Part shown: piece by piece, positions 2,069-49,683 of the stretch
How positions within the stretch are numbered: position 1 is the first letter of the stretch
How the letters are laid out: every line of letters starts with the position of its first letter
Source of the DNA: Chloroflexota bacterium
GTDB lineage: Bacteria > Chloroflexota > Dehalococcoidia > UBA2979
Reading direction: 5' to 3'
Assembly: GCA_002716405.1 (NCBI GenBank)
Contig: PBBA01000006.1
Location: 70,142 to 134,141, forward strand
DNA: 64,000 nucleotides
Notes under the pieces: model-generated
The model's database searches: none
What the model was told of the DNA's origin: nothing
Seen by the model: the letters and a program-made list of their open reading frames with translations, nothing else
Made by a program: the position numbers and the translations under genes

Positions 2069-2473
2069 GTGTACTTTTTCGGCACCTTCGAACACTCCAT
2101 CGATGAGCGCGGACGATTAGCAATCCCCGCCCGCTATCGTCGCGCGTTCGTCGACGGTGGAGTTCTTCGCCCAAGTCCAGATGGAGCTTTAGAGTTATAC
2201 ACTCAACAATCTTTTGATTCTGAAGCAACAAGACGACTTGAATCAGGTAATGGAAATCGTGAACGTTCATCGCGTAGAACACGACGTAGTTTTTTGCATG
2301 ATGCATATTCAGTTGAATTAGATAAGCAAGGACGCATACTTATTCCTCAAATACTCCGTGAAAATGGCTCTCTTGAAAATCGATGTACATTAGTAGGTTG
2401 TGGTGATTATGTAGAAATCTGGGACCCAAATCTTTGGGAAAACGAGCTGACATCTATACCACAAGATGAATAG
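2069..2473 (+). CDS. mraZ: Transcriptional regulator MraZ
   Basis: 134 aa with two DXXXR-type repeats (ERGRLAIPARYRR / DKQGRILIPQILRE). It is the first gene of the dcw cluster. Confidence 0.9.
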   Translation: MYFFGTFEHSIDERGRLAIPARYRRAFVDGGVLRPSPDGALELYTQQSFDSEATRRLESGNGNRERSSRRTRRSFLHDAYSVELDKQGRILIPQILRENGSLENRCTLVGCGDYVEIWDPNLWENELTSIPQDE

Positions 2474-2481
2474 AGGCATAA

Positions 2482-3971: not shown

Positions 3972-3973
3972 TA

Positions 3974-8125: not shown

Positions 8126-8141
8126 AAAATAGAAGTTAAGA

Positions 8142-13151: not shown

Positions 13152-14221
13152 AACAAACCCCTATGAAAATTGGAATTATTATCGGTGGTCAATCAAGTGA
13201 ACATTCTGTTTCTTTAACTTCGGGTAATTGCATTATTGATGCCATTGATGACAATTTATATGAGATCACACCGTTTGGTATTAACTTGGAGGGATTATGG
13301 TTGAATATAGAAGAAACGCAGAATCGCCTCAAAGAATTCATGCATGACGAACGTGATTCTCTAGGTACAGATTCAGGAAAACATTTATTAAATAGTCCTG
13401 AAATTCTATCAGCGTTAGGAGAAATGGATGCAATCTTTCCCATCATTCATGGTACAAACGGTGAAGATGGAAAGCTTCAAGGGTTTTTAGATTTGGTTGG
13501 TATCCCCTATGTAGGCGCAGGAGTTGCAGCAAGTGCTTTAGGTATGGATAAAGCACTAATGCGGAATAACTTTGAAAGTGCAGGGATACCTCAGCCAAAA
13601 TACCTAATTTTTAGTAATAATGATCAAGAACATTTAGACGACAATATAACTAAGCAAATTGAAAAAAATATTGGATATCCTTGTTTCATAAAACCATGTA
13701 ATGGCGGTTCTTCAATAGGTGTAAGTAAAGTACTTTCTCGTGAAGACTTAGGTTCTGCGTGGGGATTAGCAAAACAATATGATCAGAAGGTAATTATAGA
13801 AGAAATTATGCGGGGAAGGGAGTTGGAATGTGCTGTAATAGGCAACAATTCTCTTTTAGTTTCTGGGGTAGCAGAAATCAGAACTTCAGAAGAATTTTAT
13901 ACTTACAGTGCTAAATATTCTGATTCAAGCACTGAGTTGATACTCCCAGCTGACATTAAGTCGGAAACACTACAAAAAATTCAAAATTATGCAATCAATG
14001 CTTTTCAAGCGATTGATTGCAGTGGTTTAGCAAGGGTAGATTTCATCGCGGATGAAATTTCAGAACCAAAAATAATTGAGATTAATACTCTTCCAGGGTT
14101 CACACCACAATCTATGTTCCCACGATTATGGGAAGCAGAAGGAATTACTTACTCAGAATTAATCACAAAATTAATCGATCTTGCTTTTGAAAAACATTCT
14201 TCTGAAAGATTGGAGAATTAA
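13148..14221 (+). CDS. ddl: D-alanine--D-alanine ligase
   Basis: KIGIIIGGQSSEHSVSLTSG N-terminus and an ATP-grasp fold. Confidence 0.92.
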   Translation: MKQTPMKIGIIIGGQSSEHSVSLTSGNCIIDAIDDNLYEITPFGINLEGLWLNIEETQNRLKEFMHDERDSLGTDSGKHLLNSPEILSALGEMDAIFPIIHGTNGEDGKLQGFLDLVGIPYVGAGVAASALGMDKALMRNNFESAGIPQPKYLIFSNNDQEHLDDNITKQIEKNIGYPCFIKPCNGGSSIGVSKVLSREDLGSAWGLAKQYDQKVIIEEIMRGRELECAVIGNNSLLVSGVAEIRTSEEFYTYSAKYSDSSTELILPADIKSETLQKIQNYAINAFQAIDCSGLARVDFIADEISEPKIIEINTLPGFTPQSMFPRLWEAEGITYSELITKLIDLAFEKHSSERLEN

Positions 14222-15071
14222 GTTGTTTCGTCGCAAAAAAATAACACCCTCGAAAAATAAAATAAATAGATCATTTAATCCATTAAGCAGAGAGCTACAA
14301 AAAAAGAGAAGCCCTAATTTTTTTCCTAAACAACAAATATTCTTAATTAGAAGTATTTTGTTAAATCAAAAAACTTTCCTACTCTTATTTTCACTTACAT
14401 CTGTGATTCTAATATTAATTGGAATTGTAAAAATAGCTGAAAGTGATATTACGCGTGTTCAAAATATTGAAGTTCTCGGAACTGAGATAATTAACCCACA
14501 GGATATTGTTGATATAAGTAATCTTACCGGACAACATATTTTCTCAGTCAACATGAGCAAAGTAGAACAAAAAATCACAAACATAAATGGTATTGAGGAA
14601 GTCTCAATACGTAGAAAATGGATCAATGGGATTGAAATTACGATTTCCGAATCTCAAGGTTGGGGTTACTGGCAACATGATGCGCATAGAGTTCTTGTAG
14701 ATGAATCTGGAAAAATTCTAACTTTTGCGCGTCCAGCTCCTGTAAATGCACCTACTATTATTGATTTCAGTCTTCAAGAAAATAGTCAAAAAATGATTAA
14801 AGTTGACCAAGATTCAGTCAAATTGGTCGCACGACTGGAATCAGAAAAACGCTTTGCAAAATTGGGTTTGAAACCCATTTCGTATGTATTTGAGGATAAA
14901 CGTGGACTAACAATCCTTTTAGAAAATGCCCCAAACATTGTAATGGGCGATGCGTCCAATTATTTTTATAAGATAGCAACTTTACAAGAATTACTTTCAC
15001 GACTAAAGAAATCCACTTCAGAAATAAATGAGATTGATTTACGTTTTGGCTCAAACGTAGTCATACGGTGA
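14181..15071 (+). CDS. ftsQ: Cell division protein FtsQ/DivIB (POTRA domain). The true start may be the TTG at ~14226, which avoids overlap with ddl.
   Basis: Basic N-terminus, one TM helix and a POTRA-like periplasmic domain. It occupies the position between ddl and ftsA. Confidence 0.75.
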   Translation: MLLKNILLKDWRIKLFRRKKITPSKNKINRSFNPLSRELQKKRSPNFFPKQQIFLIRSILLNQKTFLLLFSLTSVILILIGIVKIAESDITRVQNIEVLGTEIINPQDIVDISNLTGQHIFSVNMSKVEQKITNINGIEEVSIRRKWINGIEITISESQGWGYWQHDAHRVLVDESGKILTFARPAPVNAPTIIDFSLQENSQKMIKVDQDSVKLVARLESEKRFAKLGLKPISYVFEDKRGLTILLENAPNIVMGDASNYFYKIATLQELLSRLKKSTSEINEIDLRFGSNVVIR

Positions 15072-15103
15072 TAATTAAGAGTACAATTAATTAGGAGTTA
15101 CAA

Positions 15104-16336
15104 ATGGCTACTACGAAAATAACTGCTATTGACGTAGGTACAACAAAAATTTGCACTGTTGTTGCTGAAGTGACTCCAGAAAATGAACTTCGTATCCTCG
15201 GCGTAGGGATTGGCCCTTCTGCAGGTCTAAATAAAGGTATGGTAGACGGAGTACAAATTGCAACTGAGGCTATTTATTCTTCCGTCGAGCGAGCTGAGCG
15301 TGCGTCAGGAGAAAAAATTATCTCAGCACATATTGGTATTTCAGGTCCTCATATCTCTGGTAACAATTCACAGGGAATCATTGCAATTACTGATCAACAA
15401 CAAGCTATTTCAAATAGTGACGTTGAAAGAGCTTTAGAAAGTGCTCGAATATTTAATGTACCTAACAATCGCCAGGTAATACATGTAGTTCCTCGCCACT
15501 ATATTGTCGACGGAAGCGACAATATTTCTGATCCAGTTGGGATGTTTGGTTCACGCCTAGATGTGGAAACGCATGTAGTAACTTGTTCCTTATCTGCAAT
15601 GCAAAATCTCATGACATGTGTCGAAGGGACTGGTGTACAAGTTGAATCTTTAGTCTTACAACCATTTGCATCTGCTGAAGCAGTCACTACTCCTGAAGAA
15701 AGACTCCATGGTTGTGTGTTGGTGGACATTGGTGGAGGTACTACAGATGTTTGCATATATCGTGATGGAGCAGTAGCACATACAGCAGTACTACCGGTAG
15801 GCGGAGCACATATGACAAGGGATCTCGTTGTTGCATTACGAGTTCCACAACCTTCAGCAGAAGAAGCTAAAAGAGCTTATGGCCATGCAATTCCTTCTTT
15901 AGTTGATGAGACTGAAGAAATTGAAATACCTTCATTTGGATCAGATGAAAATAAAATTGTTAAAAGAAGACAACTTGCAGAAGTTTTACAAGCAAGGACT
16001 GAGGAACTAATGGAAATGGTCGCAGCTGAAATTTCAAGAAATGGAGAATCTGCCTTACTTTCTGCGGGAGTGATTTTAACTGGCGGAGCTGCTTCATTAA
16101 AAGGAATCGAACTGCTCACTGAAGAAGTACTTGAACTACCAGCAAGAGTAGGTAGACCTCATCATTTGGCAGGCCTCTCAGATATTCTTCATGACCCCGC
16201 ATATGCAACTTCGGTAGGTTTATTACAATGGGCTTTAAAAGAGCAATCTATCAATATAAACCCAAAACCAAGTACTCCCATCGGTGGATGGATATCAAAA
16301 CTAGCAAATTTGATGAGAATTATATTACCTCAATAA
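15104..16336 (+). CDS. ftsA: Cell division protein FtsA
   Basis: 410 aa with an actin-like ATPase fold ([20 protein letters not shown]). Confidence 0.95.
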
Positions 16337-16367
16337 ATTAACTTTGATGAATAGCAAGGAGCCTTCC

Positions 16368-17720
16368 ATGAATAAATCCAACGATAAAGAAGAGGGAAAT
16401 ATTCCAGAAAATGAGCAGAAATTAACCGCAGGTTCTTTGTTTGACTACTTAGCAGCAGCCCGCGAAGAAAATGCCTCGATCGATGAAATAGATATAGGCA
16501 AATCAACTGAAAAAGATTTAGAATCTAATAAAGAACATAACTCTGATATTCCAGAGACTTTTGAAATGCCTGAAAGAGAGATCACAATGACAAATGAATC
16601 TTCTAAAGAAACCTGGGGGGAAGGTGATCTTGAAGGACTACCTCCAATTAAAGTAGTGGGGGTTGGAGGTGGTGGCTCTAATGCGGTAAGCAGAATGATG
16701 GACTCTTCTTTACCTGGAGTTCAGTACCTAGCTATGAACACTGACTTACAAGCACTTGAATCTGCAAATGCCGATATCAAGGTAAGGATAGGAGATAGGT
16801 TAACTCGAGGGCTTGGCGCAGGTAGCGACCCACTAAGAGGACACCGTGCAGCAGAAGAGTCAAGAGAATTGATCGCTGATGCTCTGCAAGGAGCAGAGAT
16901 GGCTTTTGTAACAGCAACTTTAGGTGGAGGAACTGGTACGGGAGCTGCACCTATAGTTGCCGAAATAGCACGTGAATTAGGAGCTCTAACTATTGGTGTT
17001 GTAACAAAACCTTTTAGTTTCGAAGGGGCAAAAAGGCGGCAACAAGCCGAAGATGGAATTCGAGACCTCCAAGATAAAGTAGACACATTAATTGTAATCC
17101 CCAACGATCGATTAATGCAGATGAATGACGATGACCTACCTGTAGTAGATGCATTCAAAGCGGCAGATGATATCTTGAGACAAGGTATACAAGGTATAAG
17201 TGAACTAATTACTATTCCTGGAACTGTCAATTTAGATTTTGCTGATGTTCGTAAAATCATGACCGATGCTGGTCCAGCACTTATGGCCATTGGCCACGGC
17301 ACAGGACAACAACGAGCTGTTGAGGCTGCACGTCAAGCCATTTCAAGTCCTTTACTTGAAGTAGATATTACCGGAGCAACAGGTGTATTGTTCAACGTTG
17401 CTGGTTCTCAAAATATGACATTACGAGAATTAGGTGAAGCTGCTAGATGTATAGCCGAAGTAGTTGATCCAGATGCTGAAATTATATTTGGTACTACAGT
17501 CGATGAATCGCTTAATGATGAAGTACGTATGACAGTAATTGCTACTGGATTTGTTGGTAGTCGCCCGTCTTCTATTCAAAGAACAATTAATGACATCGAA
17601 TTAAGTGGTGAAGAACCTTCACCGATTAAATTAGGTGAGTTAACTGATGGCCAAGGGTTAGACGCTTTGGATGAGGCCGATCTACCAACTTTCTTAAGAC
17701 GCACATTCCCTGAAAGATAA
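16368..17720 (+). CDS. ftsZ: Cell division GTPase FtsZ with a ~90-aa acidic N-terminal extension. The ORF-track start is 16344; ATG 16368 has a strong AAGGAG Shine-Dalgarno.
   Basis: Tubulin signature GGGTGTG, plus [11 protein letters not shown] and NTDLQAL motifs. Confidence 0.93.
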
Positions 17721-26417: not shown

Positions 26418-28769
26418 TTAGACCGAAGGAGAATCGACAATTATCCCCAGTTCAAACAGCTCGGTAATATCTAAAGAAGAGTATCCAAGAATTTCACCCA
26501 AAATTTGACCATAATGCTCTCCAAGACCAGGTGAGCGTACCCAAGAATCATAACCACGTTCATTATAAAATTTTACCGGTGAACCATCGTAGGATTGTTC
26601 ACCGGCATCCAGCTCTTCTACACTAAAAAAATAACCACGTTCTAATAAATGTTCATCATTTAACCATTCAGGAGAGGAATTAACAACCCCAGCGGGGATA
26701 GATATTTTTTGTAATTGCTTCATTAATTCAACTTTGTCCAGATCTTTTGTCCAATTATCTATCAATTCATCCAACAGTATTTTATTAATTTTTCTATTGG
26801 TAATGGAATTAAACTTATCTTCATTTTCCCAGTTTTTTTCTACCAAAGTACATAATCGATACCATTCACTATCCGAGCGAATTGAAATTGCAATCCATTC
26901 ATCATCGCCTAAGCAACGATATACTCCATTAGGAGCAAAATCGTTATGTAGATTAGGTGCTATTTGAGGTTCACTTTGATTTAATTGTGATGCAAGAAAA
27001 TATTCACCAAAATATCCTACCCCACATTCATGTTGAGAAAGCTCTACAAAACTTCCTTCATTTGTTCGGTTACGTCGTTCTAGGGCAGTCATTACAGCAG
27101 CGGTTGCTGCTGTCCCAGACATAGCATCGGTCAAAGCTTGTACAGACATTCGAGGTTCCTCTGAACTATAACCCAAAAGAGCACAAACACCTGTTAAGGG
27201 TTCGATACTGGGACCCAAACCAATATATTCACGATAGGGACCACTTAACCCAAATGCTGGCATAGCCACATAAATAATTTGTGAATTACGTTTCTTTAAC
27301 TCAAAGTAATCAAGGCCAAGTGAGGGCATTGCACGGGCACTAAAATTTTCGATAACAACATCGCTTTTTTCAACTAGTTCAAGAAATACTTCACGTCCAC
27401 GATTTGCTTTAAGGTTTATAGCTAAACTTTTTTTATTTCGATTAAGTTTATTATTGAGCCCTTGACGATTCCAAGGAGTAACACCAGGATCGTTATCGGG
27501 ATAGTAACCAGATTTATCAGCAGAACTAGTTACTTTTCTTGGACCTCGACCATCTTGAGCTTCAATTTTTATAATTTCTGCCCCCATATCACCAAGTATT
27601 CGTGTTGCCAAAGGACCTGACCATATCCGAGTGAGATCAAGTACACGTAATCCTTTTAGTGGTTGCACATTAGTGTATCGGGGATTTTTAAATTCGTTCT
27701 TTTTAGTTTCCCACTTAATATCTTCGGGTAGATATGTTTGAGGTGGATTTTCTTCAGGAACTTCTTCACCAGCAAATTTGAATGGTGACCCTGCCGTCTG
27801 TACTTCAGTATTTCCATAATTAATTGTTTTCCAAAAGTTACGAAATCTAAGGTGTTCATCACCTAAAACCTCTCCTAAACTTTGTTGAATACCTATAGGT
27901 ACTCTCCATGTTTCCTGACCAGTTTTAAATAAAGTTGCCCGATCTAGATCTGAAAATGCATCCTCGATAATAGAGGTTATTTCATCAACCCTTTTCATTC
28001 TTTCTGAATTTTCCGCATACTCGATATCATGTGCTTTTTCTCCCATTCCTAACATAAACGCGAATGGTTCCCAGAACCGTGGAAGTATATTGACTCCTAC
28101 CCACCCATCAGCGCACCTAACCATTGTGGTAGGGCAAAGATTTTGCCATTGATTGCCATGACGACTTCTAATATCTTTATGTTGTGACCACATAACATCG
28201 GTAAATTGATGCAATCCAACTACCGTTTCAAATATAGAAATTTCAATAGTTTCTTTTTCAGAAATCACAACACCTGATAAATACTGAGCAATTGCAGCAA
28301 TATATGCAAAAGTTCCAGCTTGATAGTATGGATACCGACCAGGCAAAGTTAATGGAGTTCGTCCAATATCACCTGACAAAAAAGTATAACCACCTTGAGC
28401 AAGTATTGTTGTTTCTGTAGCTTCGTAGTCACGATAAGGCCCTGAAAGACCGAATGGAGTGATTGAGACTTTTACCGAATTATTACTAGCACATTCAAAT
28501 ATTCTATACTCATCTAAAATTTTGGGAGACAAGTCAGTAAGTACAATGTCCGCTTCACTTAGTATTGAAGAAAACAAGTCACGCTGTGAATCATCAAAAT
28601 AATTAATTTTTATATGACGTTTACCTGCATTCAAATATAAATTATCCGCCTCTGCGACTTGTTGCCGGTAAGGAGTTTCTACCTTTATGACTTCTGCGCC
28701 CCAGCGCGCGAAAAGTTTTCCTGCATAAGCAGCTGCATTTTCACTATCGCTTATTTCAACAACACGCAT
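26418..28769 (-). CDS. Tandem double-domain CoA-transferase family III (CaiB/BaiF) fusion protein, 783 aa
   Basis: The N-terminal half (~1-365) is a divergent CaiB-like domain (AAYAGKLFARWGAEVIKVETP). The C-terminal half (~370-783) is canonical (LKGLRVLDLTRIWSGPLATRILGDMGAEIIKIE). Confidence 0.8.
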   Translation of the reverse strand: MRVVEISDSENAAAYAGKLFARWGAEVIKVETPYRQQVAEADNLYLNAGKRHIKINYFDDSQRDLFSSILSEADIVLTDLSPKILDEYRIFECASNNSVKVSITPFGLSGPYRDYEATETTILAQGGYTFLSGDIGRTPLTLPGRYPYYQAGTFAYIAAIAQYLSGVVISEKETIEISIFETVVGLHQFTDVMWSQHKDIRSRHGNQWQNLCPTTMVRCADGWVGVNILPRFWEPFAFMLGMGEKAHDIEYAENSERMKRVDEITSIIEDAFSDLDRATLFKTGQETWRVPIGIQQSLGEVLGDEHLRFRNFWKTINYGNTEVQTAGSPFKFAGEEVPEENPPQTYLPEDIKWETKKNEFKNPRYTNVQPLKGLRVLDLTRIWSGPLATRILGDMGAEIIKIEAQDGRGPRKVTSSADKSGYYPDNDPGVTPWNRQGLNNKLNRNKKSLAINLKANRGREVFLELVEKSDVVIENFSARAMPSLGLDYFELKKRNSQIIYVAMPAFGLSGPYREYIGLGPSIEPLTGVCALLGYSSEEPRMSVQALTDAMSGTAATAAVMTALERRNRTNEGSFVELSQHECGVGYFGEYFLASQLNQSEPQIAPNLHNDFAPNGVYRCLGDDEWIAISIRSDSEWYRLCTLVEKNWENEDKFNSITNRKINKILLDELIDNWTKDLDKVELMKQLQKISIPAGVVNSSPEWLNDEHLLERGYFFSVEELDAGEQSYDGSPVKFYNERGYDSWVRSPGLGEHYGQILGEILGYSSLDITELFELGIIVDSPSV

Positions 28770-28881
28770 AATCTTCCTATCAATAAAATAAAAAAAACTA
28801 TCTCTTCAGCACGTAATCATAGATGATAACGAACAAGAATGCTCAAATCAGTTATATAACAAATTTGTGTTTTGGAGGCCT

Positions 28882-29532
28882 ATGCCGTTTATTGAACTAC
28901 ATGTACATACGAAAGCAGGCTCTGCAGACTCAAGCATCTCGGTCGATGCATTGGGAAAGCACGCATCAGAACAAGGTACTGGCGCGATATTGGTAGCAGA
29001 ACATTGGCGTGTATGGACCGATTGGGAACAGTCAGGATTTGAAGCGCAATGGGGAGTGAAACTTTTTGCTGCATTAGAGCAAACAACTGATGAGGGCCAT
29101 TTCATAGTTATCGGTCCCAAACCTGGTGAAACTTTACCATCGAATGCATCAAAACTTTTGGAATACACAAAGAATAACCAATACTTTGTAATCTGGGCCC
29201 ATCCCTTCAGGCATTTTTTTGATGCAGTAGGAGCATCACGCCCTCCATTTGCTATGGATGCAAGTTTCGAGGAACTCGCAGCACATCCTACATTTTCACT
29301 TGTTGACGCAATTGAGATTGAAAATGCAGGATGCACAGAACGTGAAAATTCTCTAGCTTTGGAGGTCAGTCAGCTATTAACTAAACCTGTTACTGTTGGT
29401 AGTGATGCGCATGATGTCGAACATATTGGCGCAAGAAGACTACCCATCCCAGAAATCCCTCAGGATAAAGCTGAATTATTAGAATTAATTCAATCTTTAA
29501 GTCTTGAAAAAATTCCTAATTTAGGTCAATAA
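28882..29532 (+). CDS. PHP-domain metal-dependent phosphoesterase. The ORF-track start is GTG 28867; ATG 28882 has a GGAGG Shine-Dalgarno.
   Basis: MPFIELHVHTKAGSADS... HxH motif and later His/Asp ligands typical of the PHP family. Confidence 0.75.
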   Translation: MPFIELHVHTKAGSADSSISVDALGKHASEQGTGAILVAEHWRVWTDWEQSGFEAQWGVKLFAALEQTTDEGHFIVIGPKPGETLPSNASKLLEYTKNNQYFVIWAHPFRHFFDAVGASRPPFAMDASFEELAAHPTFSLVDAIEIENAGCTERENSLALEVSQLLTKPVTVGSDAHDVEHIGARRLPIPEIPQDKAELLELIQSLSLEKIPNLGQ

Positions 29533-29535
29533 AAA

Positions 29536-30840
29536 CTACAAATAACGAAGTTTCTTTGCCTCTGCTGTTAACTGATCTCTAAATTTAGGATGCGCAAGGC
29601 GAATAAGTGCTTCAGCTCTTGCAGCGGTTGTTTTCCCTTTTAGATTTTCTGCTCCAAATTCAGACACAACCCAATGAACATCATTACGTGGGGTGGTCAC
29701 AACTGCACCTGGTGTAAGAGTTGGCACTACACGAGACACGGTCCCACTTTTTGCAGTGGAATAAAATGCAATTATTGATTTACCGCCTTTAGAATCAAAT
29801 GCCCCTCTTGCATAATCATGTTGCCCCCCTGTACCACTAAATTGCTGAATACCTATTGATTCAGAGCAACATTGTCCAGTGAGATCTACTTCAATGGTTG
29901 AATTAACTGAAATCTGATTATCATTTTTTGCAATGTTTGGTGGATAGTTCGTATAAGAGACTGGGTGAGCTTCAATATATGGATTATCATCTAAAAATTC
30001 ATACATTCGTTGAGAGCCTGCTGCAAATGCATATAATGCCTTGCCTGCATGGAATGTCTTCTGAGTCCCATTCGCTACGCCTGATTCAACCAGGTCAACC
30101 ATTGAGTCTACAAACATTTCTGTATGAATGCCTAAATTCTGATGTCCCATTAAACTTTTTGCAACTGCATTAGGTACACCACCAATACCTAATTGAATGC
30201 ATGCGCCGTTTGGTATCATTCCAGCGATAATTTCACCCATCGCACTATCTTCTTCTTTTTCAGGTGGTGTGGGTAATACTGTCAGAGGAACATTATTTTG
30301 TATGACAGCATCCACTTCAGAGATATGAACCCATGAATCTCCATGTACACGAGGCATATTTTCATTAACTTCAGCAATTACCACATCAGCTTTCGCAATA
30401 GCTGCCTTATTAACATCAACACTGGTACCTAAACTCATATATCCATGTCGATCGATTCGCGATACGCACACAATTGCAACATTTACATCCATAAACTCTG
30501 TTATCAATCTTGGGATTTGATGAAAAAATGCTGGACTAAATGACGCAATTCCTTCAGCAATAAGATTTCGATCTGCTCCTGTTGCAAACAATGATTCCCA
30601 ATGAATAATATCCGTAACATCATCTGAAAAAATAGTACGTGCACTTGCGGCCATTGGAAGTAATGCTGTCATACGAAGATCTGTAAAACCACCATTGCGA
30701 GCACGATCAGCAATAGCTTCAAGTAGTCCTGGTGGTTCACCCGTAGCCATTCCTTGAACAATAAATGAATGATCAGGGATCAAACTGGCTGCATCAGTGG
30801 CTGAACAAAGTTTACTTTGAAATAATTGTTCGTAATTCAT
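29536..30840 (-). CDS. Acetyl-CoA hydrolase/transferase family protein (4-hydroxybutyrate/succinyl-CoA:acetate CoA-transferase-like)
   Basis: 434 aa with N- and C-terminal AcetylCoA_hydro domains (…ISVNSTIEVDLTGQCCSESIG…). Confidence 0.8.
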   Translation of the reverse strand: MNYEQLFQSKLCSATDAASLIPDHSFIVQGMATGEPPGLLEAIADRARNGGFTDLRMTALLPMAASARTIFSDDVTDIIHWESLFATGADRNLIAEGIASFSPAFFHQIPRLITEFMDVNVAIVCVSRIDRHGYMSLGTSVDVNKAAIAKADVVIAEVNENMPRVHGDSWVHISEVDAVIQNNVPLTVLPTPPEKEEDSAMGEIIAGMIPNGACIQLGIGGVPNAVAKSLMGHQNLGIHTEMFVDSMVDLVESGVANGTQKTFHAGKALYAFAAGSQRMYEFLDDNPYIEAHPVSYTNYPPNIAKNDNQISVNSTIEVDLTGQCCSESIGIQQFSGTGGQHDYARGAFDSKGGKSIIAFYSTAKSGTVSRVVPTLTPGAVVTTPRNDVHWVVSEFGAENLKGKTTAARAEALIRLAHPKFRDQLTAEAKKLRYL

Positions 30841-30918
30841 GCTCTCTCCTTTTATCTTAGCTAATGTAAGAATACTCTTTAGAGCAACTTTTTTTGATTA
30901 TAATATAAGGAAAAATTT

Positions 30919-31758
30919 ATGAAATTTGGACTCACAATTTTCCCAACTGATTATGCAATCGATCCAATCATTCTAGCGCAAGAAGCAGAAGTTAGAGGAT
31001 TTGAATCGATTTTCCTCCCTGAACATACACACATACCAGTTAATAGAGAAACTCCATTTCCAGGAGGTGGTAAGTTACCTAAAGAATATTCACACACTTT
31101 TGATCCGTTCGTAACACTAGGTGCAATTGCAGCCTCAACCAAAACTATTAAACTAGCAACAGGAATTGCATTAATAGTTGAAAGAGATCCAATCGTTCTA
31201 GCGAAAGAAATTTCTACTTTGGATATCATCTCGAATGGACGAGTCTTATTAGGTGTTGGAGGAGGATGGAACCGTGAAGAAATGAGAAATCATGCGACAC
31301 CTCCTGAAAGAAGATGGAAACTTATGCGTGAACGTATTGAAGCAATGAAAAGTCTTTGGACACGTGATGTTGCAGATTATCATGGGGAATTTGTTGATTT
31401 TGATCCCGTCTGGCAATGGCCCAAACCATTACAAAAACCTCATCCGCCAATTGTTGTAGGTGGTAATGGCGCAAATACACTGAAGAGAGTTATACGATAT
31501 GGTGATGAATGGATGCCGATTGGTAATCGAGGAGAATATTTAAATCGAATACCTGAATTACAAGAACTTGCACAAGAAGCAGGTCGTAATTCAATCCCCG
31601 TCTCGGTCTTTGGTGCAAGCAACGACGAAAAAAGCATTATAGAGTTAGCCAACGCAGGTGTGCATAGAGCGATACTGCGTTTGGAGTCAACGGGCAAAGA
31701 ACAGATACTACCAAAATTAGATCAATATGCTTCTCTAATTGAAAGTTTTTCTAATTAA
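30919..31758 (+). CDS. LLM-class (luciferase-like) flavin/F420-dependent oxidoreductase
   Basis: MKFGLTIFPTDYAIDPIILAQEAEVRGFESIFLPEHTHIP; TIM-barrel LLM family signature. Confidence 0.8.
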   Translation: MKFGLTIFPTDYAIDPIILAQEAEVRGFESIFLPEHTHIPVNRETPFPGGGKLPKEYSHTFDPFVTLGAIAASTKTIKLATGIALIVERDPIVLAKEISTLDIISNGRVLLGVGGGWNREEMRNHATPPERRWKLMRERIEAMKSLWTRDVADYHGEFVDFDPVWQWPKPLQKPHPPIVVGGNGANTLKRVIRYGDEWMPIGNRGEYLNRIPELQELAQEAGRNSIPVSVFGASNDEKSIIELANAGVHRAILRLESTGKEQILPKLDQYASLIESFSN

Positions 31759-31776
31759 ATTATCAAGGATATAATT

Positions 31777-32883
31777 ATGACATCGACATCAGAATCGAGA
31801 AATTCACCGATCAAACTCGACAACTTAAATGACGCTATTGAATTCTGTTATGAATCCGGCTGGACAGATGGGTTACCAGTTGTTCCTCCCACAATTGAAC
31901 TAGTAGAAAAAATGTTAGATCAAGTAAAACTTGATCCTTTTGAAACAATTGCCGAACACATTACAACTCAAAGAAAATGCAGTGCACATGCAGCTGCTAC
32001 TAATGCAGTAATGGCAGGATGTCTACCTGAACATTTCCCTGTTGTAATAGCAGCATTACGCGCTATGTCTAAACCAGACTTTAATTATCATGGTTCAACT
32101 GCTAGCACTGGTGGATCAGCACATATGGTCATAGTCAGTGGTCCAATTGTTAGTCAATTAAACATGAACTCAAGTGGAAATTTATTTGGTTCGGGTAATA
32201 GAGCTAATGCATCAATTGGTCGTGCAATAAGATTGATACATATGAACGTATTCCATATGGAACCAAATATCACAGATCGGTCAACACAAGGAAATCCTGG
32301 AAAATATTCGTTATGTATAGCTGAAAGAGCTGAAAAAAGCCCTTGGCCGAGTTTGAATGAATACTTTGGACATCCAAAAGAATCGATAGTTATAGTTTTT
32401 GCTACAGGTGGTTTTCATAACATTGAAAATCACTTTGCTTCAACACCAGAAGAAGTTTTATTAACTGTTGCCGATTCCATGAGTTGCTTAGATTCACTTA
32501 CGCATGGGCAATCAGTAGTTGTACTATCTCCTGAAACAGCTGAAATTATAGCTGAAGATAAAACTTGGACTAGAGAAAAAGTTCAAGAGTATTTATTTAA
32601 TAATGCTTGGCGTAGTATCAATGATTTAGAACGAATAGGCCGTCCACCAATGGATCAAACAATCCAATCTTCAACACAATCAGAAAACTACTCACCTGGA
32701 GAAACTCAATTCGAAATAGATAGACAAATTATTCGTAAAACCGACCCACAGAGATATCATAGAGGTATAGCACCTGAAGATATATTGTTACTTGTTGGTG
32801 GTGGTGATGCCGGAGCACACTCTTCTTTTTTACCATCATGGAGTAGGGCTCGAAATTCATTAATGCAAATTGAGGTAATCTAA
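31777..32883 (+). CDS. Conserved hypothetical protein (368 aa), immediately upstream of and in the same frame as the UGSC selenoprotein gene
   Basis: ORF with no recognised family. It ends at a TAA 12 nt before the downstream start. Confidence 0.5.
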   Translation: MTSTSESRNSPIKLDNLNDAIEFCYESGWTDGLPVVPPTIELVEKMLDQVKLDPFETIAEHITTQRKCSAHAAATNAVMAGCLPEHFPVVIAALRAMSKPDFNYHGSTASTGGSAHMVIVSGPIVSQLNMNSSGNLFGSGNRANASIGRAIRLIHMNVFHMEPNITDRSTQGNPGKYSLCIAERAEKSPWPSLNEYFGHPKESIVIVFATGGFHNIENHFASTPEEVLLTVADSMSCLDSLTHGQSVVVLSPETAEIIAEDKTWTREKVQEYLFNNAWRSINDLERIGRPPMDQTIQSSTQSENYSPGETQFEIDRQIIRKTDPQRYHRGIAPEDILLLVGGGDAGAHSSFLPSWSRARNSLMQIEVI

Positions 32884-32895
32884 GTAAAGGTAACT

Positions 32896-33432
32896 ATGAC
32901 ATTAAAACTGTATGATCCGAAAATAGATGATCTAACTAAAGTATCTTTAGTTAATCTTGCTCCAAGATTAACTAAACTCAGCAATACAAAAATTGCACTC
33001 CTTTCTAATGGCAAATTTAATGCCGATGTTCTTCTTCGGCTAACTGCAGAAATTTTCGAAAAAAATCATCAAAGTAAGGTTATTTTAGACCTAAATAAAC
33101 ACAGTGCATCACGCCCTTGTCCACAAGATATTATTGATACAATTGTTCGAGCTAATGTTGATTTCATGATTACAGCCGTAGGTGACTGAGGATCATGTTC
33201 GACGTGCAGTGTGCACGACGGAATTACTTTAGAAAAATTAAATGTTCCAGCTTTAACTTTATGCACATACCCTTTTCAACCAACTGCTGAGGCGACAGCA
33301 AAAACTCTCGGTTTACCTAATTTTAGATTTGCACTAATAGATCATCCTATCGGAAGTCGAAGTGAACAAGAACTACGTGAACGAGCTCAAGAAGCCTACG
33401 TACAAGGATCGAAAATACTGCTAGGTAATTAA
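32896..33432 (+). CDS. UGSC-family selenoprotein. The in-frame TGA at 33187-33189 is read as selenocysteine (…ITAVGD-U-GSCSTCSVHDG…), giving a full product of ~178 aa.
   Basis: Two ORF-track pieces (32896-33189 and 33211-33432) are in one frame and separated only by TGA. The UGSC motif is present. A perfect hairpin (CGTGCA-GTG-TGCACG, extended UCG/CGG) starts 10 nt downstream of the UGA, as expected for a bacterial SECIS. Confidence 0.65.
33199..33221 (+). ncRNA. Putative bacterial SECIS element (mRNA stem-loop) downstream of the in-frame UGA
   Basis: tcgaCGTGCAgtgTGCACGacgg: 6-bp perfect stem plus a 3-bp extension across an A·A mismatch; apical loop GUG; 10-nt spacing from the UGA. Confidence 0.5.
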
Positions 33433-33443
33433 TAAAAAAAGTA

Positions 33444-34751
33444 TTATTTCTGCACTAAAGATCTGTTCAATAGTTCAATTACATGTAGGACCTCTGCATC
33501 AAATCCACTCTTCCGTACACCTGATTGTAATTGCAAAGTACACCCAGGATTGGCAGTACAAATAATTGAACTCTCAGTTGTAAGAATATCTTCCATTTTA
33601 GTATCGAGAATATTGTTAGACATCTCAGATTGCACCAAAGAATAAATTCCTGCTGAACCACAGCATCGATCAGGATTACTCATTTCATGAAGATTAATTC
33701 CAGGGATTTGATTAAGAATATCTCTCGGAGCTTTTCGAATTCCTTGTGCATGAGCAAGATGACAAGAATCTTGCAAGGTCACATTAATATCAATCTTTGA
33801 AAGGCTGTTTTGAAAATTTTCTTCCTGCATACGTGGTGCAACAAATTCCAGAATATCTTCAACTTTATCTGAAAAAACTTGTGCTCGTTCTGACCACTTA
33901 ATATCTTCACGCAATAAATGATCATATTCCTTCAAAGTAGAACCACACCCTGCAGCATTCACAATAATTGCATCAACTTGATGTTCTTCAAATGCTCTGA
34001 TATTTTTTCTGGCCAATTCACGGCTTTTTTGCATATCACCTGCATGTAAATGAAGTGCTCCACAACATACTTGAGAAGGAGGGGCTATTACTTCACAACC
34101 TAATTTTTCTAACACATTTATGGTCGCTTCATGCGTTTGAGGGAATATTTCCCCTTGAACACAGCCCATTATCAGCGCAACTCGCATAGAAGCATTATCA
34201 GGTGAAGATAGAATTTCTCGTTGATGAAAGCGTTTTGAATTAATTTCAGGGATCAATGCCTCAAAGTTAACAATACGCTTTGGAAGCCACTTATAAATAT
34301 GTTTTCGAAATAAACTTTGTAATCTTGTTTTTGAATATATACGTAATGGTAATATCGCCAATCTTAAAATTATTGGCCTAACGATGACATTACGTAGCAA
34401 AAAAGTACGTAATCGCCATTGCTTAGGTTGTAATGATCGTGGATTAGACATAATTGATGCTCGAGCATCCTCCATAATTCTTCCATACGGTACACCTGAA
34501 GGACATGCAGTTTCACATGCTCGGCATTGTAAACAAAGATCCAAATGACCAAGCAAGCGATCATTTATATCAATACGACCAGAACGAACTGCATCTATAA
34601 GATGCAGTCGCCCTCGAGGTGATTCTAATTCATGCCCGGTGGAGATATATGTCGGGCATGAAGGCAAACAAAATCCACAATGAATACAATTACGGAGATC
34701 TTCCGCAGACGGAATATCTGTACCGACGAATTTAATTGGCATAAATGACAT
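33444..34751 (-). CDS. glcF: Glycolate oxidase iron-sulfur subunit GlcF ((Fe-S)-binding protein with 2x CCG domains)
   Basis: Two 4Fe-4S ferredoxin-type Cys clusters (CIHCGFCLPSCP, CLQCRACETACP) and two Cys-rich CCG domains. Confidence 0.8.
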   Translation of the reverse strand: MSFMPIKFVGTDIPSAEDLRNCIHCGFCLPSCPTYISTGHELESPRGRLHLIDAVRSGRIDINDRLLGHLDLCLQCRACETACPSGVPYGRIMEDARASIMSNPRSLQPKQWRLRTFLLRNVIVRPIILRLAILPLRIYSKTRLQSLFRKHIYKWLPKRIVNFEALIPEINSKRFHQREILSSPDNASMRVALIMGCVQGEIFPQTHEATINVLEKLGCEVIAPPSQVCCGALHLHAGDMQKSRELARKNIRAFEEHQVDAIIVNAAGCGSTLKEYDHLLREDIKWSERAQVFSDKVEDILEFVAPRMQEENFQNSLSKIDINVTLQDSCHLAHAQGIRKAPRDILNQIPGINLHEMSNPDRCCGSAGIYSLVQSEMSNNILDTKMEDILTTESSIICTANPGCTLQLQSGVRKSGFDAEVLHVIELLNRSLVQK

Positions 34752-36020
34752 CTAGACACCAACCATCCATCGTCCAGGGTTCAGAATCCCAGAGGGGTCA
34801 AATCGATACTTTAATGAACGTACAAGATCTGTTTCAATATCACCAAACGGATCAAATACTTCACGAATATTGCCTGGAGCTGTTTCAACTTGCATAAAAC
34901 CACCTAAGCCTTCAACTTGCGAGCGAAATTTCGATAACGAAACAACATTAATATCTTCAAAAATTACCCGCACAGATCCAGATGTTAAATTGGCCCATGT
35001 ACAAATTGCTGATGTTAATTCTGCAAGTTTAATAACCTCAACAATATTATTAGCTTGGACACCACATCGTAATACAATCTGTTCTTTTTTTTCATTGGCC
35101 AAAGAGCGAATTTCAGCCCAAATTTGAGAATCTTCTAGTTGATTAATTTCACCAAATCTACGCATTATTTCCTCAGTATCCTGTATCGAACGATGAATTG
35201 ATACTTCAATTCCGACATACTCAACTAACACCTTCGGTGCATACGAAAATCCTAACTTAAAAGATGTCTTAGAATCCAAAATTGTCAATCCACGAATAGG
35301 AAGAACACTATTGCGAAGAATAAAAGCCAAATCACCTGCTTCTTTGATGTCAGAACAATGTAAAATCAATGAAACATTTCTTTCAGGAATTGGAAGAACT
35401 TTAAATGATGCGCTCGATATTATACCAAGTGAACCCAAGGCGCCGGTATGCAATCGATGCATATCAAACCCACTCACATTTTTTACCACACGACCCCCAC
35501 TTGTAGCTATAGATCCATCGGCCATAACTACTGTCATTCCTAAAATAAGATCTCGAGTGGAAGGTACATTTCCCCTCCAAGCCCCTGAACGAGCTGTTGC
35601 AAGCAAGCCACCGATCGTAACAACATCACTAGGATTAGGATCAGCTGGCAAATATTGTCTATGCTCTGAAAGAATAGCTTGAAGATCATGCAATGTAGCT
35701 CCAGATTCAATAGTTACCGTAAGATCTTCAGGAGTATATTCGACTAATTTTGATATTCCAGATGTATCGAGTGCAATATCATATCTCTCTAGTTTTCGAC
35801 CGAAAGTCAGTGCAGTACGGCTACCTTGAGGACTGACAGCAAAGTTATACTGATTGGCAAATTGAATAATTTGAGATATTTGATCAATATGTAGCGGGCG
35901 AAACGCTGATAGAGGTACCTTACCATCAATGACATACATTTCGGGCTCACGACAAATTTCAGGAGGTAAAGATTTTATAAAATTTCCTATAGATTCAGGA
36001 AATGCTTGAATATTAGACAT
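34752..36020 (-). CDS. glcE: Glycolate oxidase FAD-binding subunit GlcE. The start is taken at ATG 36020 (MSNIQ…); the ORF track extends to 36158.
   Basis: FAD-binding PCMH-type domain. It has the classic 8-nt ATGTCTAA overlap with the glcD stop. Confidence 0.75.
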   Translation of the reverse strand: MSNIQAFPESIGNFIKSLPPEICREPEMYVIDGKVPLSAFRPLHIDQISQIIQFANQYNFAVSPQGSRTALTFGRKLERYDIALDTSGISKLVEYTPEDLTVTIESGATLHDLQAILSEHRQYLPADPNPSDVVTIGGLLATARSGAWRGNVPSTRDLILGMTVVMADGSIATSGGRVVKNVSGFDMHRLHTGALGSLGIISSASFKVLPIPERNVSLILHCSDIKEAGDLAFILRNSVLPIRGLTILDSKTSFKLGFSYAPKVLVEYVGIEVSIHRSIQDTEEIMRRFGEINQLEDSQIWAEIRSLANEKKEQIVLRCGVQANNIVEVIKLAELTSAICTWANLTSGSVRVIFEDINVVSLSKFRSQVEGLGGFMQVETAPGNIREVFDPFGDIETDLVRSLKYRFDPSGILNPGRWMVGV

Positions 36021-37506
36021 AGACACCTGGTATGGAAAATTGTTGATCTGTAATTTGCATATGACCTTGAGCACAACCATGTCCAGTGGGGAGAATTTTA
36101 CAAGGATTAAAATTCCCCACGGGATCAAAAGAAAAACGTATTTTCTCCATAGCAGCAAGATCAGACTCTGTAAATACCCACTCCATATACGAACGCTTTT
36201 CTAAACCAATACCATGCTCACCTGTAATCGAACCACCTGCATCAACACAAAGCTTCATTATCTCTCCTCCAAGCTCCAACACGCGATCGGTAGCACCAGA
36301 TTCTAGGGGATCAAATAGAACCGTTGGATGAAGATTACCATCGCCAGCATGGAACATGTTTGCACATTTAAATCCAGCTTTATGACTAGCCAAAAGAACT
36401 TTATTTAATATCTCTGGCAATTTTGTACGTGGAACTACACCGTCAAGTAAATATATTGCTGGTGCTGTTTGGCCCAATGCACCAATTGCAGATTTACGAC
36501 CTTCCCAGAGCGATTCTCTTTCTAAGCTACTTTCGGCTATTCTGACCTCACGTGCACCTAGCTCATTGCATGCCTTCACAACAACTGCAGAGTTATGCTC
36601 AACAACTTCTGATAAGCCTTCAACTTCAATTAACAAAACAGCACCAGCATCAATTGGATAGCCAGCTCGTACCCTAGGTTCCACTACCTTAATTGTTTCT
36701 TGATCCATCATTTCCATGGCCATAGGAATTACACCACTTCGAATCACTGCAGATACTGCACTAGAAGCAGCATCAATACTATCGAAAATAGCAAGCATCG
36801 TCCTAACAGTTTCATTAACAGGAATCAGGCTTACACATATCGCAGTAACGATTCCCAATGTTCCTTCTGATCCTACAAATACTCCACGTAAGTCCATACC
36901 AGGAGTATCCAACTGTCTACCTCCTAACCAAACAATTCTCCCTCCAGGTAAAACCACTTCCATTCCTAGGATGTGGTTAACCGTTGAACCATATGCCAAT
37001 GTATGAGGTCCACCTGAATTTGTACCTACATTACCACCAATAGTACATATACGTTGCGATGAAGGATCAGGAGCATAGATCAAGTTATAAGGTTCAAGTG
37101 CCTCATGAAGATGGAGATTAATAACCCCGGGTTCAACAATGGCTAAACGATTTTCAGCATCAATTTCTCTTATTTTATTCATAGCAGTGAGAACAATTAG
37201 GATTCCACCCTTTACAGGAAGTGCACCACCTGCAAATCCAGTCCCAGATCCTCGAGGTATCACAGGAATGTCATATTGCGCAGCCACCGTTACTGCATGA
37301 GATACTTCTTCAACAGTTGTAGGAAGAATTACAATATCAGGCAGTGCACGATCGATTGAAGTATCGTATTCATAAACCAGAAGATCTTCAGGAGCATCTA
37401 AGATTTTTGATCTCTTAATCTTTTTTGTAAGATCAAAAATTAATGCAGTAAGTTGATTATTTTCCATAGAATTGCAGTCTATCACTACTTTAGAGGCTCT
37501 AAGCAA
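36013..37506 (-). CDS. glcD: Glycolate oxidase subunit GlcD (FAD-linked oxidase)
   Basis: 497 aa with FAD_binding_4 and FAD-oxidase_C domains (PRGSGTGFAGGALP). Confidence 0.82.
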   Translation of the reverse strand: MLRASKVVIDCNSMENNQLTALIFDLTKKIKRSKILDAPEDLLVYEYDTSIDRALPDIVILPTTVEEVSHAVTVAAQYDIPVIPRGSGTGFAGGALPVKGGILIVLTAMNKIREIDAENRLAIVEPGVINLHLHEALEPYNLIYAPDPSSQRICTIGGNVGTNSGGPHTLAYGSTVNHILGMEVVLPGGRIVWLGGRQLDTPGMDLRGVFVGSEGTLGIVTAICVSLIPVNETVRTMLAIFDSIDAASSAVSAVIRSGVIPMAMEMMDQETIKVVEPRVRAGYPIDAGAVLLIEVEGLSEVVEHNSAVVVKACNELGAREVRIAESSLERESLWEGRKSAIGALGQTAPAIYLLDGVVPRTKLPEILNKVLLASHKAGFKCANMFHAGDGNLHPTVLFDPLESGATDRVLELGGEIMKLCVDAGGSITGEHGIGLEKRSYMEWVFTESDLAAMEKIRFSFDPVGNFNPCKILPTGHGCAQGHMQITDQQFSIPGVYV

Positions 37507-46847: not shown

Positions 46848-47627
46848 CTAAATTTCACTACCCAAAATTTGAAAAATTTCACTTTTAATTTGTGTAAATT
46901 CTGTAGAATGAATCACTTTCTTTTTTCGAGGCCTTTCAATACTTACATCAACGCGCTTAATAATTGAACCAGGTCGTTCCGACAAGATGTAGATAGTATC
47001 AGAAAGTAAAATAGCCTCATCGACATCATGAGTAACTAGAATTATTGTTCGACGATCGTGATCCCATATCTGCTGAAGCCATTGTTGCATTTCATAACGT
47101 GTTAATGCATCAAGTGAACCAAATGGTTCGTCGAGTAATATCGTGTCCTTGGGAATTAAAAAAGTTCTAAGCAATGCTAATCTCTGACGCATACCACCAG
47201 ATAATTGATTAGGCCAAACTTTTTCAAACCCTGCAAGACCAAATAGTTCATATAATTCTGATGCTTTTTGAAAAGCTACCTTCCGAGGAACACCTAAAAT
47301 TTCAGCTCCAAGTACAGCATTTTTCTCAACTGTACGCCAAGGAAATAGAGTGTCTCTTTGAGGCATAAATGCCACACGCCCTAAACTACTGAAACTTTTT
47401 TCACCATTAACATAAATTACTCCTTTAGACGGATTGAGTAATCCAGAAATTAAGTGAAGTAGCGTACTTTTGCCAGATCCACTAGGACCAATAAAGCTTA
47501 CAAAATCACCAGTATTAACTTTAAAAGATATATCTCGTAAAGCATCTATTTTTTGTGATTGAGTATATGTATAGTCAACACCTTCAACATCTACAGCAAC
47601 GTCTTCCATAGTTATAGATTCTATCAC
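46848..47627 (-). CDS. ABC transporter ATP-binding protein (NitT/TauT family; ThiZ-like)
   Basis: Walker A GPSGSGKST, signature LSGGMRQR, Walker B ILLDEPFGSLD. Confidence 0.9.
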   Translation of the reverse strand: MIESITMEDVAVDVEGVDYTYTQSQKIDALRDISFKVNTGDFVSFIGPSGSGKSTLLHLISGLLNPSKGVIYVNGEKSFSSLGRVAFMPQRDTLFPWRTVEKNAVLGAEILGVPRKVAFQKASELYELFGLAGFEKVWPNQLSGGMRQRLALLRTFLIPKDTILLDEPFGSLDALTRYEMQQWLQQIWDHDRRTIILVTHDVDEAILLSDTIYILSERPGSIIKRVDVSIERPRKKKVIHSTEFTQIKSEIFQILGSEI

Positions 47628-48641
47628 TTAGGGTAAAAATTCATTGGAATATACATTTTCCACTTCTAAAGAATTCTCTGTAATCCCAGATTGTAGAAGA
47701 AAGCTTTCAAATCCTTCCCAAATATCTAATTCTTGGTAACCCCATTGACTATTTTCATCTTTATATCGAGTAGCTAAATATAGAGTACTTTTTCTAACTA
47801 ATTGTTCATCTAACTCAGGGACAGACTTTAACAAAATAGTAGCTGCTTCATCAGGATTACTCATTGCATATTCATATCCACGATTTGTAGCATCAAGAAA
47901 ACTAGTAATTAAGTCAGGGTTTTCAGAAATCAATTTATCGTTACTTGCGATTAATGGTGTATACCAATCGGGAATACAATTAGTGTAATCGATGAATTTT
48001 AGTGTCTTTATCTCAACACCATCCATACTTTTTGCCCTGATAACATCCCATCCTTCAAAAACCCATACAAAGTCAAATCTACCTTGTTGCATACCTGGAA
48101 CATAATCAATGTTTCCAACTTCAACATACTTAACTTTGTTAGGGTCTCCACCTGCACAGGTGACAAGTGTGTCAATTAAGCTTTTTTCCAACGGACCACC
48201 CCATCCACCATAAGTTTTACCTACAAGATCTTTAGGATTTTCTATTCCGGTAGAAGAAAGACTCATAAGACTTGAATCATTATGAGGTAAAATAGTCGCG
48301 ATCGATGTAATAGGAATTTCAGCTAATCGTGCAGGAATCATATACTCAGCATATGATATGCCAAAATCAACCTTCCCTTGACCTAAAACAGGCTCAACTC
48401 CTGCGGCTGCAGGTTCAATAATTTGAAGATCTATCCCCATTTCTTTATACCAGCCCTGATCTAAAGCAACGTAAATACCTGCGTGATTTGTATTAGGAGT
48501 CCAGTCCAACATCAACGTTGTAGTACGTAATTCATTACTATCATTACCATTCATACAACCAATGCTCACGATAATTAAAGTAACGACAGCAACCAATCTA
48601 ATGGTAATAACCTTAAGATAATTAGTAATCATTTCTTTCAT
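47628..48641 (-). CDS. ABC transporter substrate-binding protein, NMT1/THI5-like (ThiY-like HMP-binding protein candidate)
   Basis: 337 aa with an N-terminal TM/signal and an SsuA/THI5-type periplasmic binding fold. It lies downstream of a TPP riboswitch. Confidence 0.75.
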   Translation of the reverse strand: MKEMITNYLKVITIRLVAVVTLIIVSIGCMNGNDSNELRTTTLMLDWTPNTNHAGIYVALDQGWYKEMGIDLQIIEPAAAGVEPVLGQGKVDFGISYAEYMIPARLAEIPITSIATILPHNDSSLMSLSSTGIENPKDLVGKTYGGWGGPLEKSLIDTLVTCAGGDPNKVKYVEVGNIDYVPGMQQGRFDFVWVFEGWDVIRAKSMDGVEIKTLKFIDYTNCIPDWYTPLIASNDKLISENPDLITSFLDATNRGYEYAMSNPDEAATILLKSVPELDEQLVRKSTLYLATRYKDENSQWGYQELDIWEGFESFLLQSGITENSLEVENVYSNEFLP

Positions 48642-48657
48642 TTCCTCTCTCTCAAAT

Positions 48658-49440
48658 TTACTTATCTCCCATATCGATCAATGCTTTCCTCCAAGGCATA
48701 GCAATATTCGATAGTATTTGTATTGATATAAATAGTGAGATGCTAAGTACTGCAATTACGATGATCGCCATGAATATCTGATCCGTTTGGAAAGATCTTT
48801 GAGATCTGACTAAGAATAACCCCAATCCTGAACTAGCACCCATCCATTCTGCAATCACTGCACCTATGACAGCGTACGTTGAAGCAATTCTTAGTCCAGA
48901 AAAGAAAGCTGGAATAGCTGAAGGAAAAAGTACTAATCGGAAAGTTTGCCATCGATTAGCACCAAGACCACGAACTAAAGAAATCATATCTTTATCTACA
49001 TTCATTAATCCATCTGCAGTATTCACAACAATTGGGAAAAAGCCTATAAGGACAACAATAATTACTTTAGGTGTCAGACCAAATCCAAACCACACAGCAA
49101 GTAGTGGGGCTAAAGCTAAAATCGGAATATTTTGACTAACTACAACAATGGGATATAAAACACGACGGATAAACGGTATACCGGCAATTAAAGCTGCTAT
49201 CAATACACCGATAATTACTGCAAAAAAAAGTCCAACTAGTGCTTCTGACATAGTAGTAAGTATATGTTCAGGTAAAATTGAAAAATGGTTAAGAAAAGAT
49301 TGCCCTACTGCACTAGGAGCAGGAACAAGATAGTCGGAAACATATCCTGACTTAACATACCATTCCCAAAAAAAAATGCTAAAAGCTAGAAATAACATAC
49401 ATGGAAAATATTCTTTATTTTTCTGCCGTAAATTATTCAC
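48658..49440 (-). CDS. ABC transporter permease (NitT/TauT family; ThiX-like)
   Basis: 260 aa, 6 TM helices, with an EAA-like loop. Confidence 0.85.
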   Translation of the reverse strand: MNNLRQKNKEYFPCMLFLAFSIFFWEWYVKSGYVSDYLVPAPSAVGQSFLNHFSILPEHILTTMSEALVGLFFAVIIGVLIAALIAGIPFIRRVLYPIVVVSQNIPILALAPLLAVWFGFGLTPKVIIVVLIGFFPIVVNTADGLMNVDKDMISLVRGLGANRWQTFRLVLFPSAIPAFFSGLRIASTYAVIGAVIAEWMGASSGLGLFLVRSQRSFQTDQIFMAIIVIAVLSISLFISIQILSNIAMPWRKALIDMGDK

Positions 49441-49491: not shown

Positions 49492-49610
49492 AAAGAAAAG
49501 CGTAGAACTAGATAGAATGCCATTTAGCTACTCCGCTTCCCTACGCTCGAATTACCAAGTTCAGGTTCCTGGGGTTGAATCTATTCTCTCAGCCTCTAGG
49601 CTCCCCCAGC
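49492..49610 (-). ncRNA. TPP (thiamine pyrophosphate, THI-box) riboswitch with a putative terminator expression platform, in the 5' leader of the ABC transporter operon
   Basis: The - strand RNA reads CCGCUGGGGGAGCCUAGAGGCUGAGAGAAUAGAUUCAACCCCAGGAACCUGAACUUGGUAAUUCGAGCGUAGGGAAGCGG. It contains the conserved CUGAGA, ACCUGA, GGUAAU and GCGUAGGGAA elements and a P1 (CCGC/GCGG). Downstream, the hairpin GCGUAG…CUACGC is followed by UUUUCUUU (49492-49505). Confidence 0.75.
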
Positions 49611-49683
49611 GGATTAACCATGTTAAGAAGAAATTACTCTAGAAGTCAAACTACAGATACAATACTAATAACTGAGAAAAAAT

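Follow-up and report, generated by a model that had tools for sequence, protein, structure and literature searches.

A probable UGSC-family selenoprotein gene recorded as two hypothetical proteins in a marine Chloroflexota genome

Introduction

Contig PBBA01000006.1 belongs to a marine 'Chloroflexi bacterium' metagenome-assembled genome (MAG) whose close relatives are named Dehalococcoidia. In a 64-kb stretch of this contig, referred to here as the window, two short open reading frames (ORFs) lie next to each other on the forward strand, with a TGA between them. GenBank lists them as separate entries, MBG92857.1 (CL792_02635, 97 aa) and MBG92858.1 (CL792_02640, 73 aa), and the same split is found in the ENA, JGI and Tara gene calls. 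Does the TGA end a protein, or is it a selenocysteine (Sec) codon inside a longer one? An initial annotation, made from the sequence without database searches, favored a Sec codon. It joined the two ORFs into one gene of the UGSC family, proposed that a hairpin downstream of the TGA is a selenocysteine insertion sequence (SECIS), and predicted that the gene would be mis-annotated as two hypotheticals. Both GenBank entries are indeed named 'hypothetical protein'.

The UGSC-containing protein has been recognized as a selenoprotein family since about 2005-2007 (PMC1976440). The initial annotation traced its discovery to marine metagenomes, which needs qualification since the family was also found early in cultured Hyphomonas neptunium (PMC1976440). 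In the Global Ocean Sampling (GOS) survey it was among the most abundant selenoprotein families, with 255 Sec forms against 21 cysteine (Cys) forms (PMC2398784). Its function was still listed as uncharacterized in 2026 (PMC13188914). Here we present a computational analysis of the locus. We conclude that positions 32896-33432 very probably constitute one UGSC selenoprotein gene, in which UGA is decoded as Sec by means of a SECIS hairpin.

Results

The two ORFs share one reading frame

The first ORF starts at an ATG and encodes 97 aa (32896-33189). The second starts at a GTG and encodes 73 aa (33211-33432). Their starts are 315 nt, or 3x105, apart (33211-32896), and the sole stop codon between them is the TGA at 33187-33189. 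Translation thus bears out the earlier description of one frame interrupted only by TGA. The read-through translation is MTLKLY...DFMITAVGD*GSCSTCSVHDGITLEK...ILLGN*, and the product is 178 aa long when the TGA is decoded. It consists of Met1-Asp97, Sec98 and Gly99-Asn178, followed by a TAA stop at 33430-33432. The redox motif of the product is U98-G-S-C101. A possible weak Shine-Dalgarno sequence precedes the ATG (Table 1). No comparably spaced sequence is found upstream of the GTG, where GAGGA sits 18-22 nt away.

TGA terminates 13 of the 54 long ORFs in the window. Since it is an ordinary terminator here, the recoding would be site-specific and would not reflect a changed genetic code. A six-frame scan for junctions outside other long ORFs identified the UGSC gene as the only plausible in-frame TGA junction in the 64 kb. 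The junctions at 18475 and 48680 were considered as second genes of this kind and rejected, as both are ordinary gene boundaries.

Table 1. Features of the UGSC locus (window coordinates)
Feature	Position	Strand	Basis or remark
Predicted UGSC-family selenoprotein coding sequence (CDS)	32896..33432	+	Frame, translation, Pfam and NCBIfam matches spanning the TGA, frame conservation in orthologue L207
In-frame UGA, predicted Sec98	33187..33189	+	Cys-form column; TGA kept in L207 and in at least 102 metagenomic homologues
Predicted SECIS hairpin within the CDS	33199..33221	+	Fold, bacterial SECIS criteria, covariation, leave-one-out covariance model
Possible weak Shine-Dalgarno sequence, AAGGT	32887..32891	+	4 nt before ATG 32896; from sequence reading only
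Conserved partner gene, 368 aa	31777..32883	+	Ends 12 nt before the UGSC start

Homologues carry cysteine at the UGA position

The 178-residue product, with U written as C for profile searches, matches Pfam PF24696 'UGSC' at 153.2 bits (cutoff 25; E 9.9e-45). The match is one stretch that spans the TGA and places residues 6-174 on profile positions 3-169 of 172. NCBIfam NF041046 'UGSC family (seleno)protein' is also matched in a single stretch, by residues 31-170, at 129.2 bits (cutoff 125). Both results support the assignment to the UGSC family made from the motif.

Protein-database matches are of two kinds. The first are 97-aa fragments, 100% and 80-82% identical to the N-terminal piece. These entries are the same truncation artefact in the same and related organisms, and do not support homologues that end or start at the TGA, a finding that the initial annotation had named as grounds for rejecting its proposal. 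The second are full-length proteins of 177-182 aa with Cys at the TGA column, among them P0006-P0009. In an alignment of 62 members, G96, D97, C98, G99, C101 and S102 are invariant, and the TGA takes the C98 column. A scan of genome contigs found 365 Cys-form relatives with GDCGSCS, mostly from Actinomycetota; it used a Cys-containing peptide pattern and so returned Cys forms only. The Cys forms are single chains. The Cys homologues anticipated at the U position were therefore found in large number.

Conservation and constraint continue across the UGA

We searched metagenomes with the pattern GGNGAYTGAGGNTCNTGYTC, which matched at least 120 contigs; Sec-form counts given in this work refer to the matches listed. 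Among the 120 contigs listed, 102 encode a homologue with this TGA, whose read-through translation resembles UGSC on either side of it. The identical 97-aa piece occurs on 36 contigs from independent samples. The orthologue L207 is about 81% identical, has the same neighbors, and keeps both the frame and the TGA. Compared with L207, the ratio of nonsynonymous to synonymous change (dN/dS) is 0.165 upstream of the TGA (97 codons) and 0.154 downstream of it (80 codons), with a proportion of synonymous differences (pS) of about 0.45. The equally low ratio after the TGA indicates that translation continues in this frame and that the downstream part is as constrained as the upstream part. All homologues conserve the peptide GSCSTCS, which is encoded between the TGA and the GTG.

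A covarying hairpin follows the UGA

The initial annotation reported a perfect stem-loop at 33199-33221. The position is correct, but the stem is not perfect. Its core consists of six perfect base pairs, CGUGCA (33203-33208) with UGCACG (33212-33217). Below it, an A.A mismatch (33202/33218) separates the core from three further pairs, G-C, C-G and U.G, formed by 33199-33201 with 33219-33221. The apical triloop is composed of G33209, U33210 and G33211. The GTG 'start' of the second ORF begins on the last base of this loop, which agrees with the earlier view that this start is a calling artefact. The foot of the stem is 9 bases from the UGA, and the loop is separated from it by 19 nt (33190-33208). 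The minimum free energy (MFE) of 33187-33225 is -11.0 kcal/mol.

The published consensus for bacterial SECIS (bSECIS) elements describes an upper stem of 4-16 bp, a loop of 3-9 nt in which the first or second base is G and the next is usually G or U, an MFE of -7.5 kcal/mol or lower, and a UGA-loop spacing of 16-37 nt (PMC13188914). The window hairpin agrees with all four published criteria, the stem by its six perfect pairs plus three more beyond one mismatch.

We compared the hairpin among 93 distinct Sec-form sequences of 54 nt, aligned without gaps. All six core pairs are formed in every one of the 93, in the same register, and compensatory changes are seen at five of the six. For example, one core pair is U-A in 42 sequences, G-U in 36, A-U in 10 and G-C in 3; another is C-G in 78 and G-C in 15. 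The loop begins with G and U without exception, giving a G-U-N triloop in all 93. None of 500 shuffles equaled the observed values. When the 3' arm was slid by one to three columns, pairing fell from 90% to 25-43%. Cys-form genes served as a control: only 3/83 form all six pairs, none of the 83 has a G-U-N loop, and their GC content is higher. The consensus and the covariation together uphold the proposal that the hairpin is a bacterial SECIS.

A covariance model was built from 62 other Sec-form sequences, with the window left out. It matches the window at 33187-33224 only, with 56.7 bits (E ~1e-22); the next best match has 7.5 bits. Since the model reflects conserved coding sequence as well as structure, it is a family-specific detector and not a pure test of structure.

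Because the hairpin lies within the coding sequence, its compensatory changes are also amino-acid changes, and the RNA constrains the protein here. Codon pairs covary as UGC..CAC, GGC..CUC, UGG..UUC-CAC and GCC..GCC (window 33202-33218; columns 22-38 of alignment A3), and the residues at +6 and +8/+9 after Sec change together. Residue combinations after the motif include C..V-H, G..V-L and W..F-H. This hairpin-encoded segment includes Cys104 of the window protein, a residue that varies in the family.

Among the Cys-form loci, the hairpin core is kept in the three of 83 counted above, and two genes code for SSGSVLD, a peptide typical of Sec forms. Cys-form genes with either feature may be recent Sec-to-Cys conversions.

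The UGSC gene is paired with a conserved partner

The gene directly upstream encodes a protein of a very large uncharacterized family, without a Pfam or NCBIfam match. Two cysteines of the partner, Cys24 and Cys180, are invariant. Weak Pfam matches were obtained for 57 members of this family and set aside, as none recur. A PDB sequence search with the UGSC and partner proteins returned only noise, and the partner family has no solved structural relative in it.

A partner homologue adjoins the UGSC gene on the same strand in 77 of 80 Cys-form loci, and in 82 of the 83 Sec-form loci with enough flanking sequence. The order of the two genes varies. In the Sec-form loci (L087-L206), partner-then-UGSC is found 64 times and the reverse 18 times, while in actinobacterial Cys-form loci (L007-L086) UGSC-then-partner is found 73 times and the reverse four times. 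In an Actinophytocola MAG (L028, 5974-7671), UGSC and partner are fused in one ORF of 565 aa. A fusion of UGSC to an 'Unknown_1' domain, possibly the partner, was reported from GOS (PMC2398784). One locus (L118, about 3598-6531) has two tandem copies of the pair. The partner and UGSC genes probably share a transcript and are probably linked in function.

Across the loci compared, no third gene was consistently linked to the pair. A luciferase-like monooxygenase gene is located 18 nt upstream of the partner in the window and likewise beside the pair in L207, and a homologue of it is present in 19/80 Cys-form loci. In the window the pair lies amid catabolic genes (26418-37506). These include genes for a 783-aa protein with a match to family III CoA-transferase and for an acetyl-CoA hydrolase/transferase, and a convergent operon for a GlcD/E/F-like FAD/Fe-S oxidase.

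A structure model of the closest Cys homologue, P0006, consists of a five-stranded parallel alpha/beta domain that is flavodoxin/Rossmann-like. The motif is located at an N-terminal helix cap, on the helix after a beta-strand. This modeled placement is that of a redox-active CxxC/UxxC pair. The motif, the model and the gene order suggest that UGSC and its partner most likely form a two-protein module with UGSC as the selenol/thiol redox subunit. The same observations point to a physical complex of the two proteins. That they constitute a two-subunit enzyme is a tentative proposal, to which we give slightly less than even chances.

Other features of the window

A thiamine pyrophosphate (TPP) riboswitch is found at 49521-49617 on the minus strand (Rfam RF00059, 69.9 bits), upstream of a minus-strand ATP-binding cassette (ABC) transporter operon at 46848-49440. 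The operon encodes a permease, an NMT1/THI5-like binding protein and an ATPase, and is probably a thiamine-precursor uptake system. A complete and ordinary division and cell-wall (dcw) cluster occupies about 2069-17720 on the plus strand. It contains mraZ, a 16S methyltransferase gene, a penicillin-binding protein (PBP) gene, murE, mraY, murD, ftsW, murG, murC, ddl, ftsQ, ftsA and ftsZ; nrdR, a YggS-like gene, proC and recA come next.

Discussion

Weighing the alternatives

The simplest alternative is that the TGA is a genuine stop, left by a truncated or decaying pseudogene or by an assembly or sequencing error, so that the downstream 73-80 codons are not part of a protein. Standard gene callers and GenBank do end the protein at residue 97, and no Sec machinery is found in the window. 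Against this, the same TGA recurs in an orthologue of 81% identity, in about 100 distant homologues, and on 36 contigs that come from independent samples. A single Pfam domain also continues across it. The idea is largely refuted by the dN/dS values, which are as low after the TGA as before it (0.154 and 0.165) at a pS of about 0.45, and we regard it as extremely unlikely. The gene could instead be truly split, with a 97-aa N-terminal chain and a 73-aa C-terminal chain from GTG 33211 made apart and then assembled. Gene calling does report two ORFs, and in precomputed annotation each piece matches PF24696 alone. A break at this point, however, would remove the motif residue, since it coincides with the invariant catalytic Cys column. 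The GTG is inside the conserved hairpin and lacks a properly spaced Shine-Dalgarno sequence, the GSCSTCS peptide encoded ahead of it is kept by all homologues, and the Cys forms are single chains. Two separate chains are hardly credible here.

Read-through without Sec would by itself explain the downstream conservation, and the window shows no Sec machinery. In this case the UGA would specify, for example, Cys, Trp or Gly, through a near-cognate or suppressor tRNA or a reassigned code. A genome-wide reassignment does not fit the window, because TGA ends 13/54 long ORFs and is internal in the UGSC gene only. Nor does read-through of this kind account for a hairpin with a SelB-type G-U loop, SECIS spacing, and covariation only in the TGA-bearing members. 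In addition, UGSC is an accepted selenoprotein family (PMC2398784, PMC13188914). We consider such read-through very unlikely. Decoding of the UGA as Sec is the reading that we prefer.

Several results weigh against decoding as Sec or limit what can be drawn from it. The genes selA, selB and selD and tRNA-Sec were not found within the 64-kb window. ARAGORN reported only a tRNA-Asp in it, and the Pfam context of every called window gene is without SelA, SelB and SelD. Tblastn with approximate E. coli SelD and SelA queries gave no match in the window or in more than 200 fetched loci. The six-frame scan for TGA junctions likewise found no second selenoprotein gene in the 64 kb. The single-sequence fold of the hairpin is unexceptional, with z-scores from -0.9 to -1.2 and 20-35 of 200 shuffles folding as well; the significance of the hairpin comes from the comparison with other genes and not from its energy. 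Rfam has no relevant model, as searched with the whole window at gathering thresholds and with 33100-33300 at E <= 10. The NF041046 score is a mere 4 bits over its cutoff, with U replaced by C. Finally, as the function of the UGSC family is uncharacterized (PMC13188914), support for a redox role and for a complex with the partner comes from the motif, the model and the gene order.

A proposed mechanism for decoding and its requirements

A ribosome translating the UGSC mRNA would meet the UGA at 33187-33189. The hairpin would present its G-U-containing apical loop 19 nt downstream, and this loop would recruit the SelB.GTP.Sec-tRNASec complex, as in the established bacterial mechanism. Sec would then be inserted in place of termination, giving a product with U98-G-S-C101. 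Insertion of Sec and binding of SelB at this site are expected from the features of the locus described above.

The genome should accordingly carry selA, selB, selD and tRNA-Sec outside the window, as the initial annotation had also supposed. Some Dehalococcoidia are among selenoprotein-rich bacteria (PMC13326102), which makes the Sec trait plausible, not proven, for this genome. The marine Chloroflexota lineage of the window is likely a selenium user.

Significance

The locus brings no new principle, and its value lies in a sound annotation fix: merging the two GenBank entries recovers the catalytic residue. The family-specific SECIS alignment, with its clear covariation, should be useful to specialists. 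The near-obligate pairing of UGSC with its partner is a concrete handle on the function of the family. Likely selenium use by an abundant marine Chloroflexota lineage also bears on trace-element demand in the ocean.

Comparison with known systems

The UxxC redox motif is common to UGSC, the reductase selenoproteins PrdB and GrdB/GrdH, and the UxxC selenoproteins with a thioredoxin (Trx) fold. A weak NCBIfam match to betaine reductase selenoprotein B is found around the motif (E 0.008). We considered homology of UGSC to GrdB/PrdB and rejected it, as only one of 62 members gave even a 0.26 match to Pfam Gly_reductase. The similarity to PrdB and GrdB/GrdH does not recur and the partner matches no Pfam family. 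The likeness is best treated as an analogy.

The hairpin resembles bacterial SECIS elements, as described by the bSECISearch model, in being located within the coding sequence just 3' of the UGA. With its flanking bases the loop reads A-G-U-G-U, in agreement with the N1-G-[G|U]-N-N2 pattern (PMC13188914). Relative to the bacterial consensus, its loop is a minimal triloop. The prototype, the SECIS of E. coli fdhF, contains a conserved bulged U. No equivalent of this bulge is evident in the window hairpin.

The closest likeness is to the UGSC family itself (NF041046, PF24696; the 'UGSC-containing protein' of Zhang & Gladyshev). Its members and the window protein are alike in a length of about 178 aa and in the U-G-S-C motif, and in both, homologues of the Cys form align at the Sec column and a SECIS comes immediately after the UGA. 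The locus is a further member of this established family, and the recoding mechanism and the SECIS model through which it would be expressed are established as well.
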